Source: a virus | Lineage: Duplodnaviria; Heunggongvirae; Uroviricota; Caudoviricetes | IMG/VR virus record: IMGVR_UViG_2698536640_000005 | Location: 1 to 5,125 of that record | DNA length: 5,125 bases | Reading direction: 5' to 3' (one strand) | Shown: positions 1-5,125 of the stretch, piece by piece | Position numbering within the stretch: position 1 is the first letter of the stretch | Layout: each line of letters opens with the position of its first letter | Translations under genes and position numbers: made by a program | The notes under the pieces: generated by a model | What the model was told of the DNA's origin: nothing | The model's input: only the letters and a program-made list of their open reading frames with translations | Databases searched by the model: none

Positions 1-46
1 CCTGACAACCCGGTGTCCTCAACGGGGGAAGGAATAACCCCGCCAT
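1..46 (-). CDS. Partial CDS (first 15 codons only; continues past window start); possibly a DicB-like cell-division inhibitor
   Basis: ATG at 46-44 on the minus strand opens a frame with no stop before position 1 (MAGLFLPPLRTPGCQ...). Only a weak SD-like GGCGGTAAG lies upstream. Its position downstream of the YdfA/B/C-like genes is where dicB sits in Qin, and the N-terminus loosely resembles my recollection of DicB (MKTLLPNVNTSEGC...). Too short to be sure. Confidence 0.3.
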   Translation of the reverse strand, partial: MAGLFLPPLRTPGCQ

Positions 47-290
47 ACTTACCGCCGCGCCATTTCGCGGATTGCCACAACCGGAATCGCACGGTCGACG
101 AAAATTTAACGACAGGCTATCTATGAACCAGCTACCTCGCCGTGCGCTTTCGCGTTATGGTCTGACTTTTCAGGGAAATATCCTTTCAGTAAACTGTCAG
201 TGCCGTATGCTCACCCGCGTCCTGCGCACGCACTCCACCTCACCCATGGAGAACTACTTAATTACCAACCTTAGCTTCGTTGGTTAGCTA

Positions 291-509
291 TTAACGCGGG
301 TATGTAATCATTCTGGCAATGCTTAATGCCGCTGCTTTTTCCAGCCTGGTGATATCCTGCTCCAGAGCGGACAGATTTTCAGCCTGCTTAGCCCTGGCTT
401 CATTGGCCCATTTCAGATCCTGCGCTGCATTAATTTTCTGGCGCATCCACTCATAAAGTTCATCATCGGTATAGTCTGGTGCGATGATGACGGGTTCTCG
501 TTTCTGCAT
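291..509 (-). CDS. ydfC: Small prophage protein, YdfC-like (72 aa), function unknown
   Basis: ORF-track ORF; ATG at 509-507 preceded by SD GAGGAA. Predicted coiled-coil-like middle (AQDLKWANEARAKQAENLSALEQDITRLEKAA). Size and position (third gene after the 51-aa and 42-aa genes) match Qin ydfC as I remember it; the sequence identity itself was not verified. Confidence 0.6.
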   Translation of the reverse strand: MQKREPVIIAPDYTDDELYEWMRQKINAAQDLKWANEARAKQAENLSALEQDITRLEKAAALSIARMITYPR

Positions 510-538
510 ACTGATTCCTCGCGGTGCTGTTTCGCTTA

Positions 539-667
539 TCAGCCGTTAGATTTTGCCGAGCTGGAAAGCGCCTGTTTAAATTCGTTGAAGCTGAGAGCTT
601 CTTCGCCGTCGGCAAGACCTTCGAAGTATTCTTCATAAGCCTTTTCCATGATTGTGTCGAAATCCAT
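539..667 (-). CDS. ydfB: Small acidic prophage protein, YdfB-like (42 aa)
   Basis: Not in the supplied ORF track (too short); found by translating the minus strand. ATG 667-665, stop TGA 541-539, product MDFDTIMEKAYEEYFEGLADGEEALSFNEFKQALSSSAKSNG. SD AGGTGA (673-678) sits 5 nt upstream. The start is 1 nt after the TGA of the upstream gene (TGAtATG), suggesting translational coupling. Size matches Qin YdfB (42 aa) by recollection. Confidence 0.45.
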   Translation of the reverse strand: MDFDTIMEKAYEEYFEGLADGEEALSFNEFKQALSSSAKSNG

Positions 668-668
668 A

Positions 669-824
669 TCACTCACCTGAGTTTCTTTCCAGCCAGCGAC
701 GGGCACCATTTTCGGTTTTAAACGTTTTGCTTTTGGTATACGTCATCGCGGTGAACGTGCCGTCCTGGTTGGGGAACACGCCACATACCAGAGATTCGCT
801 GTTGCCAAGATCGATAGTATCCAT
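669..824 (-). CDS. ydfA: DUF1391-family small protein, YdfA/YdaF-like (51 aa)
   Basis: Part of ORF 669..911; the internal ATG at 824-822 has SD GAGGT 4 nt upstream and gives MDTIDLGNSESLVCGVFPNQDGTFTAMTYTKSKTFKTENGARRWLERNSGE (51 aa), the size of Qin YdfA / Rac YdaF. The in-frame ATG at 911 (SD GAGG, 3-nt spacer) would give 80 aa, so the start is ambiguous. Confidence 0.6.
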   Translation of the reverse strand: MDTIDLGNSESLVCGVFPNQDGTFTAMTYTKSKTFKTENGARRWLERNSGE

Positions 825-1002
825 GCTGACCTCATTTCCCCTTAACGCCGGGGTAGCGGAACTAAAAACCTGCTGCGCTGTTATATAAAGTGTTCCCGCC
901 GTCATGTTCATACGCCTCGGGCTGGCTACTTAACCCCTGACCACTGCCGGGTAACTCGAAGTATTGCCTGGCGTTCTGTGGGCGGGGTGGGTTGATGAAT
1001 GA

Positions 1003-1046
1003 ACAATACCACTACTATTTAATTATGTAAATAGCAGTGCTATTAT
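1003..1046 (-). promoter_or_regulatory. Candidate leftward (PL-like) promoter with overlapping operator palindrome AATAG-N5-CTATT
   Basis: On the minus strand: -35 TTTACA (plus 1026-1031), 17-bp spacer, -10 TATTGT (plus 1003-1008). The palindrome AATAGcagtgCTATT (1030-1044) overlaps the -35; an extra half-site CTATTT is at 1015-1020. The palindrome is nearly identical to the one at 2128-2142 beside the repressor gene. Confidence 0.35.
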
Positions 1047-1055
1047 CGTGGCAAG

Positions 1056-1078
1056 AAAAAAACCACCCGAAGGTGGTT
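1056..1078 (-). terminator. Rho-independent terminator ending the repressor-antitoxin-toxin transcript
   Basis: Minus-strand RNA: 7-bp stem AACCACC / GGUGGUU with UUCG tetraloop (1061-1078), followed by UUUUUCUU (1053-1060). It lies 14 nt after the parE stop. On the plus strand the same hairpin is not followed by a U-tract, so it is unidirectional. Confidence 0.75.
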
Positions 1079-1092
1079 GTTGACAGGAAGGA

Positions 1093-1383
1093 TTAACAGG
1101 TTTTGTTTGGATACTGTCTTCGTGAGTGAACTACATTTACGATCTCGATGTTAGATGCTGTTACTCGGTAAAGTATTATGTAGTTAGGATGAGTCACTAT
1201 CTCACGAAGACTTGGAACTCTTTCGCTCGGTGGGTACAGATAAGGGTGTTCAGTAAGTGACAAAACTGATGTTTCAATGCGTATTTTTAGTCTACGTGCA
1301 GCGGGAGGGTTTTCCTTAGCAATATAGGCTACGATCTGACGTAAATCATCACGTGCAGAAGGTAGCCATAAAATGGGCAGCAT
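1093..1383 (-). CDS. parE: Type II toxin-antitoxin system toxin, RelE/ParE family
   Basis: 96-aa product with a ParE-like pattern (LPSARDDLRQIVAYIAKENPPAARRL ... YIILYRV ... IEIVNVVHSRRQYP). The start ATG overlaps the antitoxin stop (TAATG at 1381-1385), typical of TA coupling. Confidence 0.9.
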   Translation of the reverse strand: MLPILWLPSARDDLRQIVAYIAKENPPAARRLKIRIETSVLSLTEHPYLYPPSERVPSLREIVTHPNYIILYRVTASNIEIVNVVHSRRQYPNKTC

Positions 1384-1574
1384 TACTCACTCCTGTTCGT
1401 TGCAGCTAATTGAGCAATAAGGTTTTCCATTTCAGCCATTACTTCGTCATGTGGAATTGCAGGACGGGGATCTGAGAGGCTTGCTGCCACTTTGGCTCGC
1501 AACCATTCGTTATAGCTGTTTTCTTGTTCGACTGTTTCAAATTCAGAAATTATCGGGGAAAGGGCTGTACTCAT
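1383..1574 (-). CDS. paaA: Small acidic antitoxin, PaaA2-like (63 aa), partner of ParE
   Basis: 63-aa acidic protein immediately upstream of and overlapping parE. Strong SD GAGGAGG 7 nt before the ATG at 1574. Size and context match the PaaA2 antitoxin of the paaR2-paaA2-parE2 locus as I remember it; sequence identity not verified. Confidence 0.75.
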   Translation of the reverse strand: MSTALSPIISEFETVEQENSYNEWLRAKVAASLSDPRPAIPHDEVMAEMENLIAQLAATNRSE

Positions 1575-1591
1575 GTTTTGACCTCCTCAGA

Positions 1592-2092
1592 TTAGGCGCG
1601 ACGACCCTTTTGCGCAGCTAGCCATCGCGCAACGATTTCTTCAATTGATTCTTTTTTCTCCTTCATTTCCTTAAGCATTTTCTCTTTATCTTCTTTGGGG
1701 AAAGCCCTGAACGTCTGGAGCAAATCCCGCTCCATGGGGTCTATATTAAACGGAAGTTCGTTTTCCGATTGTTCCATATCTGCAGATATAGTGACAACAT
1801 TGTCCTCCCCAGACTCTTGGGGATACATCCTTACAATTTGTAACAACTCGGCCATATCTGGTCTGATTGACTCGGGAGGAACTTGCAGCAACCCTGCGAA
1901 CTTGATAACAGCCTCAAGATTTAAAGGTGTCTGACCATTTAGATAATGGCTTACAGCTCCCTGTGTCGAAAATCCCAGAATTTCTGCCGCACGCTCTTGG
2001 GTTAACCCTAGTTGATTTTTTTTCGCCGTCCAGATTTCTTTCAGTCTCTGGGCGGCTTGCAGGTCGATCTCTGACAGGGATTTTCTTTTCAT
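1592..2092 (-). CDS. paaR: CI-like prophage repressor, HTH XRE family (PaaR-like), without an S24 peptidase domain
   Basis: 166-aa product with an N-terminal XRE-type helix-turn-helix (LGLTQERAAEILGFSTQGAVSHYLNG). The C-terminal half is Lys/Glu-rich and lacks the Ser/Lys peptidase motifs of LexA/CI. It is divergent from the Cro-like gene and sits 17 nt upstream of the antitoxin start. There is no canonical SD; a candidate -10 ends 7 nt from the ATG (possible leaderless mRNA). Confidence 0.85.
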   Translation of the reverse strand: MKRKSLSEIDLQAAQRLKEIWTAKKNQLGLTQERAAEILGFSTQGAVSHYLNGQTPLNLEAVIKFAGLLQVPPESIRPDMAELLQIVRMYPQESGEDNVVTISADMEQSENELPFNIDPMERDLLQTFRAFPKEDKEKMLKEMKEKKESIEEIVARWLAAQKGRRA

Positions 2093-2099
2093 ACCTTCA

Positions 2100-2187
2100 A
2101 TTCTAATAAGATTATTAATCTCTTTGAAATAGTGATGCTATTTACTTTTAAAAATAACAATGCTATTAATGATCGTGATGACATCAC
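2100..2187. promoter_or_regulatory. Divergent switch region between repressor and Cro-like genes: operator palindromes and candidate PRM-like / PR-like promoters
   Basis: Palindrome AAATAGtgatgCTATTT (2127-2143); repeated half-site ATGCTATT (2135-2142 and 2160-2167); second palindrome GTGATGaCATCAC (2175-2187). Candidate rightward promoter: -35 TTTACT 2141-2146, 17 bp, -10 TATTAA 2164-2169. Candidate leftward promoter: -35 TTCAAA (plus 2123-2128), 17 bp, -10 TAGAAT (plus 2100-2105). Promoter hexamers are read by eye and unverified. Confidence 0.5.
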
Positions 2188-2199
2188 ATGAGGTGAACA

Positions 2200-2475
2200 A
2201 TGAATCTTGGAGAATATTTGCATCATTCCGGTATAACTCAGAAGCATTTTGCTGAAATTGTTGGGGTAACCCAAGGGATGGTAAGCCATGTCATTACCGG
2301 ACGGGCGAAACTTACGGGGGAAAAAATTTTACGCTGGTGCGAAGCAACAGGCTGGATAGTAACTCCGCACGAGATTGATAGCAGTACTTATCCCAACCCA
2401 ACCGACGGCTTACCTGTCGAGTATCAGGCTAACACACAACCAGAGGCGGGGGTGATTCATGAAAATCAAGCATGA
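2200..2475 (+). CDS. ydaS: Cro-like HTH DNA-binding protein (YdaS family)
   Basis: 91-aa product with an N-terminal HTH (GITQKHFAEIVGVTQGMVSHVITG). SD GAGGTGA 4 nt upstream. Divergent from the repressor gene; overlaps the next gene by 17 nt. Confidence 0.85.
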   Translation: MNLGEYLHHSGITQKHFAEIVGVTQGMVSHVITGRAKLTGEKILRWCEATGWIVTPHEIDSSTYPNPTDGLPVEYQANTQPEAGVIHENQA

Positions 2476-2884
2476 ACACATCCGTATGGCAATGAATGCC
2501 TGGGCGTATCCAGACGGTGAGAAAGTTCCAGCAGCTGAAATAGCCCGGACTTATTTCGAACTGGGGATGACGTTCCCGGAACTGTACGACGACAGCCATC
2601 CGGAAGCCCTGGCCCGTAATACCCAGAAAATTTTCCGTTGGCTGGATAAAGACACCCCTGATGCTGTTGAAAAAATTCAGGCTCTGTTACCGGCGATCGA
2701 AAAGGCAATGCCGCCTCTGCTGGTGGCCCGTATGCGCAGTCACAGCTCTGAATATTACCGTGAGATCGTCGAACGGAGGGATCGGCTGGTGAAAGATGTG
2801 GATGATTTTGTCGCAGCGGCGATCGCCTGGGGCACCCTGACTAACAGTGGTGGTCAGCCTGGTAATGCTGTTGTCGTGCATTGA
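2459..2884 (+). CDS. ydaT: YdaT-family protein (CII-like regulator of lambdoid cryptic prophages)
   Basis: 141-aa product, the size of Rac YdaT, immediately after the YdaS-like gene. SD GGGGGTGA 4 nt upstream. Family assignment rests on size, synteny and recollection. Confidence 0.8.
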   Translation: MKIKHEHIRMAMNAWAYPDGEKVPAAEIARTYFELGMTFPELYDDSHPEALARNTQKIFRWLDKDTPDAVEKIQALLPAIEKAMPPLLVARMRSHSSEYYREIVERRDRLVKDVDDFVAAAIAWGTLTNSGGQPGNAVVVH

Positions 2885-2952
2885 CCAACAATATTCATGC
2901 CGGATTTCTTCCGGATGTTCGAGGGTAAAGTTCGGTATCAGATGAGGTGAGT

Positions 2953-3993
2953 ATGGCTAATGCCTGGCTCAGATTGTGGCATGACATGCCAAATGATCCC
3001 AAATGGCGAACCATTGCCAGGGTCTCAGGACAGCCAATCGCAACAGTGATGGCGGTGTATATCCACCTTCTGGTGAGTGCGTCACGAAATGTCACGACAT
3101 GTCACGGCGTGTCACTACGTGGTCACATTGATGTCACGACGGAAGATTTAGCAAGTGCGCTTGATGTGACGGAAGACGTAATTGATTCAATTTTGCATGC
3201 AATGCAGGGGCGGGTTCTGGATGGTGACCTTATTTCCGGATGGGAAAAACGTCAGGTGCTGAAAGAGGACAATGGTAACGTTTCGCAAACGGCAAAATCC
3301 CCGGCAGAGCGCAAGAGAGCGCAGCGGGAGCGCGAAAAGCTGCGGAAATATGATGCTGATTGTCACGATGAGTCACGACGTGTCACGCATCCGTCACGAC
3401 AAGTCACGACAGATAAAGATACAGATACAGAATTAAACCCCACACATAACGCGCGCATGCGCGAGAGTGCTCCAACCGGTGAGTCGCATGGTGCGCCGTT
3501 GCAGACAGCCGAACCTGAATACCTGGACGGCCTGAGCGAACCGATCGGGAAATTTTCGATGACTACTGTCTGGCAGCCGTCGTCGGATTTTCGACAACGG
3601 GCAGCAGTGTGGGGTATGGCTCTGCCTGAGCCGGAATTTACACCTGCAGAGCTTGCCGCATTCCGGGATTACTGGATGGCGGAGGGGAAGGTTTTCACGC
3701 AGGTTCAGTGGGAGCAGAAATTTGCCCGCCACGTGCAGCACGTCAGGGCACAGGTAAAACCAGTCAGCAAGGGGGTAAACCATGCAGCAGCACCAGGTGG
3801 CACCGCATCACGGGCAGTTCAGGAAATTCGGGCAGCACGTGAGCAGTGGGAACGTGAAAACGGATTTATCAGCGACGGAAACGGCCTGGAAGCTGTGGGA
3901 GCTTATGGGGGAGGTGTATTCGAACCGCTGGACCCAGAAGAACGGGGCCGCACCTTCGAAGCTCTGGATTGCCCAGATTGGCGCGATGACTGA
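2953..3993 (+). CDS. Phage replication initiator / replisome organizer (lambda O-like) with a DnaT-like C-terminal region; origin iterons lie inside the gene
   Basis: Long ORF (the track starts it at GTG 2947; ATG 2953 has SD GAGG at a 5-nt spacer). The C-terminal region FTPAELAAFRDYWMAEGKVFTQVQWEQKFARHVQ resembles the DnaT-like domain of phage replication proteins. Two iteron clusters are embedded in the reading frame, as oriLambda is in gene O. The 3' 212 nt overlap the P-like ORF. Confidence 0.75.
   Translation: MANAWLRLWHDMPNDPKWRTIARVSGQPIATVMAVYIHLLVSASRNVTTCHGVSLRGHIDVTTEDLASALDVTEDVIDSILHAMQGRVLDGDLISGWEKRQVLKEDNGNVSQTAKSPAERKRAQREREKLRKYDADCHDESRRVTHPSRQVTTDKDTDTELNPTHNARMRESAPTGESHGAPLQTAEPEYLDGLSEPIGKFSMTTVWQPSSDFRQRAAVWGMALPEPEFTPAELAAFRDYWMAEGKVFTQVQWEQKFARHVQHVRAQVKPVSKGVNHAAAPGGTASRAVQEIRAAREQWERENGFISDGNGLEAVGAYGGGVFEPLDPEERGRTFEALDCPDWRDD
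3081..3140. repeat. Iteron cluster 1: six GTCAC(G) direct repeats at 10-11 bp spacing
   Basis: GTCAC starts at 3081, 3091, 3101, 3111, 3122 and 3133 (units such as tGTCACGAc), i.e. one per helical turn. Confidence 0.7.
3362..3440. repeat. Iteron cluster 2 (five GTCACG repeats at 10-11 bp spacing) plus adjacent AT-rich tract; candidate replication origin core
   Basis: GTCACG starts at 3362, 3372, 3382, 3393 and 3403, followed directly by the A-rich stretch AGATAaAGATAcAGATAcAGAATTAAA (3411-3437). Iterons followed by an AT-rich unwinding region are the classic lambdoid ori layout. Confidence 0.65.
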
Positions 3994-4447
3994 ACAGCAA
4001 ATCCGGCTGGTCTGCCGTCAGTGCATGGACCGCTGCCGGGCGGGTGAAACGTGGCCCCCGGACCTGGCTGAGTTTGTTGCACTGATTTCGGAGAGTGGGG
4101 CAAATCCATTTGGTCTTACGGTGGATGCAGTGATGGAAGAGTACCGGCGCTGGCGCAATGAATCCTGGCGATACGACGGGAGTGATAAATACCCGTGGCC
4201 ACAGCCTGTGCTGTACCACATCTGCCTCGAAATGCGTACCAGAGGGATTGAGCGCCAGATGACGCAGGGTGAGTTAAAACGACTTGCGGAACGGCAACTG
4301 ACGAAATGGGCAAAGCATGTTGGTAACGGGATGAGTGTTCCGCCAGTGCGACGACAACTGGAAGGGGCGAAACACCCGCAAGGGCCAACGCCAATTGAAC
4401 GGCTGAAACAGGAATACGAACGCCGGAAGGCAGCTGGTTTTATTTGA
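3782..4447 (+). CDS. Replication protein P-like (DnaB helicase loader)
   Basis: The C-terminal two-thirds align by eye with lambda P as I remember it (PPDLAEFVAL vs SPGQFVAWC; DKYPWPQPVLYHI vs ESYPWKSNAHYWL; QGELKRLAERQL vs DAELRRKAADEL). The start is uncertain: ATG 3782 has a good SD (AGGGGG) but overlaps the O-like ORF by 212 nt; ATG 3905 and ATG 3986 (8-nt overlap with the O stop, ATGACTGA) are alternatives. Confidence 0.7.
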   Translation: MQQHQVAPHHGQFRKFGQHVSSGNVKTDLSATETAWKLWELMGEVYSNRWTQKNGAAPSKLWIAQIGAMTEQQIRLVCRQCMDRCRAGETWPPDLAEFVALISESGANPFGLTVDAVMEEYRRWRNESWRYDGSDKYPWPQPVLYHICLEMRTRGIERQMTQGELKRLAERQLTKWAKHVGNGMSVPPVRRQLEGAKHPQGPTPIERLKQEYERRKAAGFI

Positions 4448-4480
4448 ATCTGAGAAACGATTTTGTCGGAGGAAATTTTA

Positions 4481-5125
4481 ATGGAAACCGTATTTGACGC
4501 ACTGAAAGCACTGAAAAGAGCCTCTTCACAGGTAGTGGCGGCCCGCCTTGGAATCAGCCGTGAAGATGCGGTCAACGAACTGTGGAAACTGAAGCGCCGC
4601 GGTGAAGCGGATAACAAGGGTTCGATGTGGCGGCTGATTCAGGCTGGTGAAAGTGAACCGGTGTCACCGGTACCGAAAGTGACAGCGCAAATGCTGACTG
4701 AGGCGATTGAACAACATGGCCCACAAACGGCGGATGAGCTGGCACTGATGTTCGGGATTACCTCCCGCCGGGCGAATTCATCGCTGGCCATGGCAATCAG
4801 CAAAGGGCGTCTGATTCGCGTGAATCAGGGCGGTAAATTTCGTTACTGCATACCGGGCGCTGATTTACCGGCAGAGCCGGAAGCTGCATCCGTAGCGGAA
4901 ACCGATGGTAAAGCCTTTCCTCAGCCAGCAGGTGTTGCGTTACCTGTCCGGGAAGCAGAAACACAGGAAGAAATAAAAACGGAAAGTGTGGCGGTCACAG
5001 TGCAGTCACAGCCGTCGTTCACCAGAAAACATCCGGATGGTCTGATTTTACCATCGCTGCATGTGGCTAACCGCGAGCTGCGCCGGGCAAAAGGTCAGGT
5101 TCAGAAGTGGGAGCGAGTCTGCGCC
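4481..5125 (+). CDS. Hypothetical phage protein with two winged-helix-like repeats (3'-truncated by window end)
   Basis: Not in the ORF track because no stop occurs in the window. ATG 4481 is preceded by SD GGAGG (4468-4472, 8-nt spacer), and the frame stays open for 215 codons to position 5125. Two similar segments ([15 protein letters not shown]...GSMWRL and [15 protein letters not shown]...GKFRYCI) suggest an internal duplication of a winged-helix-type module. Confidence 0.65.

Follow-up and report, generated by a model that had tools for sequence, protein, structure and literature searches.

The first 290 nucleotides (nt) of a 5,125-nt stretch of Caudoviricetes DNA (positions 1 to 5,125 of IMG/VR virus record IMGVR_UViG_2698536640_000005; the whole stretch is called the window) were analyzed. 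This segment is very probably the known spacer of a Qin-like lambdoid dicBF operon, i.e., the 3' untranslated region (3'UTR) of ydfC and precursor leader of the small RNA (sRNA) DicF, and holds neither DicF nor the start of dicB. Its outermost part, 1-88 on the minus strand, reads as the start of a conserved four-helix RNA, a fold supported by compensatory base changes. All coordinates are window positions unless a locus is named, and the minus strand is read for the operon running from ydfC to dicB.

The identity of the locus was established by homology and synteny, both of which place the segment in the dicBF operon spacer (ydfC 3'UTR) of Qin-like prophages. Window 1-520 was matched in 4334 of 5426 complete E. 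coli genomes; among the matches listed, the annotation "protein YdfC" lay under the match in 20 of 20, and the nearest was E. coli S19-651 (locus L001, 99.8% identity over 1-520, with window position 1 at L001 6001), which carries the same annotation. The ydfC gene itself (72 amino acids (aa), 291-509, minus strand; from the list of open reading frames (ORFs) and annotation) is the last protein gene ahead of the untranslated spacer, as an earlier sequence-only reading of this DNA had claimed. The minus strand of window 1-300 was approximately 95% identical to the ydfC-dicF spacer of K-12 Qin, including segment 188-215, and the gap from ydfC to DicF was 340 nt in K-12 versus 342 nt when the DicF position of L001 was used. 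At least 80% of window 1-290 was present in 3296 E. coli genomes and at least 80% of the 581-nt ydfC-dicB spacer in 3491. The gene order ydfC, DicF, dicB of a repressor-controlled Qin-like early-left operon, also expected by the sequence-only reading, was thus correct, and dicB, intact or degraded, was found to the left in every related prophage examined.

The proximal part of the spacer (89-290, minus strand) is non-coding and moderately conserved. It was swapped wholly or partly in prophages in which other genes replace ydfC, with recombination breakpoints at several positions within it. The fold of 89-290 showed no excess stability over shuffled sequence (z = +0.54), and on neither strand of the spacer was an ORF conserved across relatives, as frames and lengths shifted with 1-nt indels.

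The sequence-only reading had placed a diverged DicF with a variant seed at about 188-215 and a DicB-like start at 46, both on the minus strand. We consider this almost certainly wrong; it is refuted on its own terms, since no covariance-model match to DicF was found and the ORF at 46 soon stops and is unrelated to DicB. The underlying observations were accurate: the 28-mer GGTGAGCATACGGCACTGACAGTTTACT lies at exactly 188-215, the DicF sequence used for the comparison was correct, and the two share the short words GGTGA and CAGTTTACT. The Rfam search returned no DicF match, whether run on the whole window at E ≤ 10 or on the 400-nt slice 1-400 alone with laxer filters, and its sole match at E ≤ 10 was a chance small nucleolar RNA on the other strand (E 7.7). 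Nothing in the window reached the gathering threshold of RF00039 (48 bits), while the same search gave DicF 61-77 bits in relatives. Ungapped, the 28-mer agreed with DicF at 13 of 28 positions. When the 53-nt DicF was aligned locally with window 1-290 on either strand, the best score was 14, a score reached by 90% of 2000 dinucleotide-preserving shuffles, and under soft scoring the gapped alignment originally proposed scored 9, reached by 72% of the shuffles. The similarity is therefore at chance level.

The minus strand of 1-290 also lacked a terminator of the DicF type (GGCGG...CCGCC followed by a U-run), which lies beyond the edge in L001. A scan for promoters and terminators detected no intrinsic terminator on this strand either, as had been stated earlier; the scan missed the terminator of DicF itself (loop of more than 8 nt), so that its negatives are weak evidence when taken alone. 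K-12 Qin has the identical 188-215 segment together with the canonical DicF, which lies downstream of it, and the GGTGA of this segment is changed to GGATA in Qin-like variants unrelated to cdtI. Segment 188-215 is ordinary spacer, and its resemblance to DicF arose by chance. DicF-type sRNAs with variant seeds, as had been envisaged, do exist at the DicF position in other prophages, but not at 188-215.

As for the supposed DicB start, an ATG at 46 does open MAGLFLPPLRTPGCQ, with 244 nt between it and the ydfC stop codon. This 21-codon ORF (1-46 within the window, minus strand) continues with VDHTLK in L001 and ends at a stop six codons beyond the window edge, the complete translation being MAGLFLPPLRTPGCQVDHTLK. 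In K-12 it is frameshifted, a 1-nt indel cutting it to 7 codons, and it was present in only about half of 15 relatives. BLASTP of the ORF against DicB produced no alignment, and the peptide falls outside the DicB family (PF05358, approximately 62 aa). The DicB N-terminus used for comparison agreed with the K-12 dicB codons for its first three residues (MKT), the check covering those three only. The start codon of the ORF at 46 (46-44) falls within the invariant GGUAAGUAUGGC core of the RNA element described below. This reading frame is probably not a gene.

The actual DicF and dicB lie further left in the nearest genome. In L001, DicF was located by Rfam at 5897-5948 (70.1 bits, E 4e-15), which is 53-104 nt past the left edge of the window, and dicB starts at 5709, 292 nt past the edge; the order is ydfC, a 581-nt gap, dicB, DUF1482 (ydfD-like), exonuclease, excisionase, and integrase. 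Of 18 further loci, 14 had a DicF at or above the gathering score of Rfam, and of the other four, three carried variant sRNAs at the DicF position and one (L018) a different sRNA (type E). DicF and dicB therefore most likely stand just beyond the left edge of the window. That the canonical DicF lies beyond this particular edge is quite probable and is stated no more strongly because the window is mosaic and the sRNA type varies among relatives of its immunity region. Window 1-991 resembles L001 (98%) and 681-5125 resembles the L147 group (97.9%), and whole-window matches were at most 97% identical and mosaic. Prophages with the immunity region of the window carry three different sRNA types at the DicF position, which likewise weighs against the canonical form; all six such prophages have dicB.

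The spacer has been described as a long, untranslated stretch that includes dicF or as the ydfC 3'UTR, from whose polycistronic transcript RNase E cuts the 5' end of DicF, the 3' end being set either by intrinsic termination, which gives 53 nt, or by RNase III cleavage, which gives 72 nt (PMC5069750, PMC9438474). The RNase E cut falls approximately 20 nt after the RNA element, between AUCAAU and UUUCUGG of an AU-rich linker. Beyond DicF, the DicF-dicB spacer (L001 5677-5899, minus strand; likewise in L005, L015, and L019) resembles STnc100 (RF02076) at 31-38 bits, which is below the gathering threshold of 47; this resemblance is outside the window and unrelated to the element. The STnc100-like outer stem, UGAAUUUUGUGAUGCGG with CCGCAUCACAAAAUUCA, begins just past the U-run of DicF and could plausibly be where RNase III cuts to give the 72-nt DicF.

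The RNA element became apparent when 15 spacers from different prophage contexts were aligned, in which the block adjacent to DicF was nearly invariant, more so than DicF itself. The element is approximately 125 nt long, and a 131-position covariance model, R1, was built with short flanks. R1 matched the window at 88-1 on the minus strand (93.9 bits, E 3.5e-26), where the window edge truncates the 3' end and leaves the first two-thirds of the element (model positions 1-87 of 131). Full copies were found in L001 (5957-6088, minus strand, 156.9 bits) and, over the full model length, in phage P1 (L021 2487-2608, 84.1 bits).

Four helices were assigned, all given on the minus strand. The 5' strand of the outer helix P1 (81-74, GUUGUGGC) pairs with GCYRCAAC, which lies beyond the edge. 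P2 is a hairpin of CCGCG (70-66) with CGCGG (59-55). The outer pairs of P3 (GGU at 53-51 with ACC at 14-12) enclose a hairpin of variable sequence (42-38 with 27-23, loop UUAUUCCUUC). The 5' strand of P4 (11-3) combines GGGUUGUCA paired with UGACAACCC and UUGA paired with UUAA, its 3' strand again lying beyond the edge.

Further copies were collected from viral contigs by an exact-core pattern, which gave 70 distinct sequences, and pairs were counted on a structure-blind MAFFT alignment of these sequences with shuffles and slid helices as controls. The fraction of paired cells was 95.8%, versus 95.0% in shuffles and 37-51% in the slid controls. Pairs changed on both sides numbered 8, versus 2.3±1.1 in shuffles (0 of 500 reaching 8) and 0-3 in the slid controls, and cells with a change on both sides numbered 18, versus 2.7 and 0-16, respectively. 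Compensatory changes were observed in helix P1 (GGC...GCC to GGU...ACC) and helix P4 (UUGUCA...UGACAA to UCGUCA...UGACAG, and also GGAUUG...CAAUCC). The P3 segment formed a hairpin of at least 4 bp in 39 of 39 distinct forms, with stems that were wholly different among variants (CAGGUG/CACCUG, CUGGGG/CUCCAG, and CGAGG/CCUCG) and a U/C-rich loop in 35 of the 39.

Several points weigh against the proposed fold. The sequences are closely related (effective sequence number of R1, 1.23), and the values from the covariation controls should not be taken as probabilities. Phage P1 shows no evident outer helix P1. When the element is folded together with DicF as a single sequence, the minimum-energy structure favors pairing that differs in part, and its z is only -1.9. 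No Rfam 15 family corresponded to the element, which in isolation gave only a chance match to gut-2 (9.9 bits, E 6.5), and no description of it was found in the accessible literature, where older primary papers may have noted the block. The element is apparently undescribed so far.

The element is single-copy, with 72 matches in 72 loci that each had several kb of flanking sequence; no second copy was found in the rightward operon of the window or elsewhere in these loci. Its orientation relative to promoter and terminator was constant, and an intrinsic terminator followed within approximately 90 nt in nearly every locus examined. Three settings were distinguished. In Qin-like operons, the element follows ydfABC or the genes replacing them, approximately 0.9 kb from the likely early-left promoter/operator. 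In phages of the cdtI/Stx2c/CPS-53 type, the order is cI, terminator, strong promoter (TTGACA-16-CATAAT), approximately 280 nt, element, terminator, and yfdP-like genes; in cdtI-type phages the element thus occupies the nutL/putL slot of a pL operon that has no N gene, and the copy in K-12 CPS-53 itself has been lost. In P1/P7 and approximately 500 related phage-plasmids, it lies approximately 35 nt after the C1-controlled promoter Pban, followed by a terminator, transfer RNA (tRNA) genes, and ban. A boxA-like GTGCTCTC(A/T), judged by eye, stands directly 5' of the element in cdtI-type phages (L145 2985-3000; also L052 and L068). The element does not fall into the lambda-type nut class, as no N-like gene was annotated in the early-left operons examined and only the weak boxA-like sequence was seen.

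What follows the element is variable. Among 129 sampled loci, 85 had the canonical DicF core and 44 had something else, and all but a few ended in a terminator hairpin with a U-run within approximately 90 nt. At least six alternative terminator-ended sRNAs occupy the DicF position in most of the 44 loci without the canonical DicF core (L005 3390-3460, L015 774-822, L016 786-837, L019 approximately 1396-1460, L147/L150, L093, L052, and L068). A short form, UUUUCUGGUGAUUCGGCGGAAAYGGAUAUCCGCC, keeps the 5' seed of DicF and has lost the middle part; another keeps the 3' part of DicF behind a new 5' end; the further forms are several unrelated hairpins. Several of these sRNAs score below or outside the Rfam DicF model. 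This variety suggests that DicF is one member of a swappable family of prophage sRNAs. Judged by the target mapping in PMC5069750, some forms would retain only the part that pairs with xylR/pykA and others only the part that pairs with ftsZ.

Two prophages carry additional RNA genes. In E. coli A34 (NZ_CP028741.1; L022 814-891), a gene annotated as "tRNA-OTHER" lies between the element and a remnant of the DicF terminator, replacing most of DicF. In L016 (1072-1260), isrK (69 bits) and then the C4 antisense RNA (78 bits) lie between a truncated dicB and a Rha-family gene, an arrangement in which an immI-like RNA module adjoins the dicB region.

For the function of the element, we favor control of read-through or processing at the downstream terminator. 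The element would act in cis as a leader RNA that decides the outcome at the terminator of the sRNA. More specifically, it may promote read-through into dicB and other early genes, resembling put in logic and not in sequence; this is the version to which we tentatively lean. Read-through is preferred because the element always has a repressor-controlled promoter before it and a terminator after it that has to be passed, and because these operons have no N. The genes past the terminator are dicB, exonuclease, xis, int, or ban. When the whole operon was expressed from Plac, toxicity was DicB-dependent and DicF was undetectable on Northern blots, while a dicF-only plasmid gave abundant DicF (PMC5069750), a contrast compatible with efficient native read-through. 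Against this proposal, the plasmid comparison is confounded by copy number, R1 found no similarity to HK022 put, each locus has one copy of the element, unlike putL/putR, and the distance from element to terminator is short and constrained.

A nearly as likely, though likewise doubtful, alternative is that the element is mainly a scaffold for processing and stability, which would position or license the release of the sRNA by RNase E and have no effect on transcription; it would shield the ydfABC message at its 3' end and might be a substrate of tRNA-processing enzymes. The RNase E cut that makes the 5' end of DicF falls in the AU-rich linker directly behind the element (PMC5069750, PMC9438474), and the element stays constant while the downstream sRNA is swapped. 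Its four-way-junction topology resembles a cloverleaf, a tRNA-like gene lies between element and terminator in one prophage, and tRNA genes follow the element in phage P1. However, for sRNAs that come from 3'UTRs an AU-rich RNase E site is generally sufficient, phage P1 and the cdtI-type phages have no upstream coding message in need of protection, and ARAGORN found no tRNA-like gene in L001 5500-6600, the element included.

It is unlikely that the element is the body of an RNA of approximately 190-200 nt (element plus terminator) that acts in trans or senses a signal. In the former case, the pyrimidine-rich P3 loop (UCCU) would pair with Shine-Dalgarno sequences, and the P3 stem is indeed freely variable while the U/C-rich loop motif is kept in the great majority of variants (35/39); the stretch from promoter to terminator in phage P1 would give an RNA of approximately 190 nt. 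In the latter case, the element would be an aptamer-like attenuator whose invariant GGCGGUA alternatively pairs with the CCGCC arm of the terminator. The element core contains GGCGGUA, as does the 5' arm of several downstream terminators, and the minimum-energy fold pairs the core with the 3' part of DicF. Nevertheless, variants with GGUGG/CCACC terminators keep GGCGG in the element and thus show no covariation for the alternative pairing, a CCGCC arm is absent from the phage P1 terminator, in Qin-like operons the element is an inner part of a transcript of approximately 1.3 kb, and neither version has a known target or ligand.

A role at the DNA level, as a recombination boundary between phage modules or a protein-binding site, would fit the clustering of mosaic breakpoints around the element region and the direct repeats CCGGTTGTGGCA and CCGGGTTGTCAGG, but is highly improbable because compensatory changes preserve the pairing of helices P1, P3, and P4 on one strand, and the orientation relative to promoter and terminator is always the same.

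Upstream in the same operon as ydfC lie ydfB (539-667, minus strand; ORF list and L001 annotation, 98-99.8% identical) and a ydfA-like DUF1391 gene (669-824, minus strand; ORF list and L001 annotation). A promoter-like site, TTTACA-17-TATTGT, was found by consensus scan at 1003-1039 on the minus strand, within an inverted repeat of 12 bp (CACTGCTATTTA...TAAATAGTAGTG). The site, which the relBE terminator closely precedes in a layout matching the cI-terminator-pL order of phage cdtI, is probably the repressor-controlled early-left promoter/operator that would drive ydfA-ydfB-ydfC, the spacer, DicF, and dicB. The RelE/ParE-RelB toxin-antitoxin pair (1093-1574, minus strand), which has its own intrinsic terminator at 1078-1061 (minus strand), is an insertion separating the repressor gene (1592-2092) from the early-left promoter region.

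Opposite the spacer, an ORF of 54 aa (123-287, plus strand) has been given the label "hypothetical protein" in some O157 genomes (WP_001302137.1; L002). It was 54, 97, or 140 aa long or broken in relatives, with neither frame nor extent kept, and is probably a spurious annotation artefact. Further right, two clusters of GTCACG-type direct repeats with 10-nt spacing (3081-3140 and 3352-3418, plus strand) lie within a DnaT/DUF1376-like replication gene and look like origin iterons of the lambdoid type. A scan of genome contigs across species for YdfC relatives gave five loci, of which four were Escherichia-like. On a 2.5-kb contig labelled as a Collinsella metagenome-assembled genome (L004, JAIIUG010000151.1), ydfC of the E. 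coli type, the element, and DicF are present with 97-99% identity; the contig is probably a binning contaminant.

The locus itself is the well-known dicBF operon, and 1-290 should be labelled ydfC 3'UTR / DicF precursor leader. DicF is among the oldest known bacterial sRNAs. We know of no explanation for the co-expression of DicF and dicB across the terminator of DicF itself, and the element is a concrete, testable candidate for its control. More speculatively, the element could represent a new class of phage leader RNA, a "launch pad" that relies on host factors only and follows repressor-controlled early promoters (lambdoid pL and Pban of phage P1), an idea that we hold with reservation. On the same proposal, it might control whether an exchangeable sRNA cassette is read through and/or processed at its terminator, which we regard with similar doubt; the cassettes would be DicF, short DicF, swapped-seed forms, unrelated hairpins, or a tRNA-like gene. 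If true, prophages could retarget a host-directed sRNA by exchanging the cassette while keeping the expression platform.

Among known systems, dicBF of K-12 Qin is the closest, with the same gene order, near-equal spacing between ydfC and DicF, and approximately 95% identity over window 1-300. The window differs in ending 53 nt short of DicF (by its position in the nearest genome), and its prophage has a different immunity region and the inserted RelBE toxin-antitoxin pair. DicF (RF00039) is the immediate downstream neighbor expected and found in relatives, and nothing in the window matches it. The papers on Qin do not describe a folded element within the spacer (PMC5069750, PMC9438474). The put RNAs of HK022, processive antiterminators that suppress termination in cis through binding to the zinc-binding domain of RNA polymerase beta', are alike in being folded RNAs after repressor-controlled early promoters, in phages without N and ahead of intrinsic terminators that have to be passed (PMC9378689). 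HK022 put has two stem-loops in approximately 70 nt and occurs in two copies, whereas the element has four helices in approximately 125 nt and one copy per locus, always near one particular terminator. A put homologue of the element was sought in one direction, R1 against the HK022 genome, and nothing was found at E ≤ 10; put is not annotated in the HK022 record. In phage P1, the "dicF-like region" (L021 2553-2654; NC_005856.1 68791-68892) consists of helix P4 and an unrelated terminator, with no DicF homologue; thus, what phage P1 shares with Qin is the element, mainly its helix P4, and not DicF.

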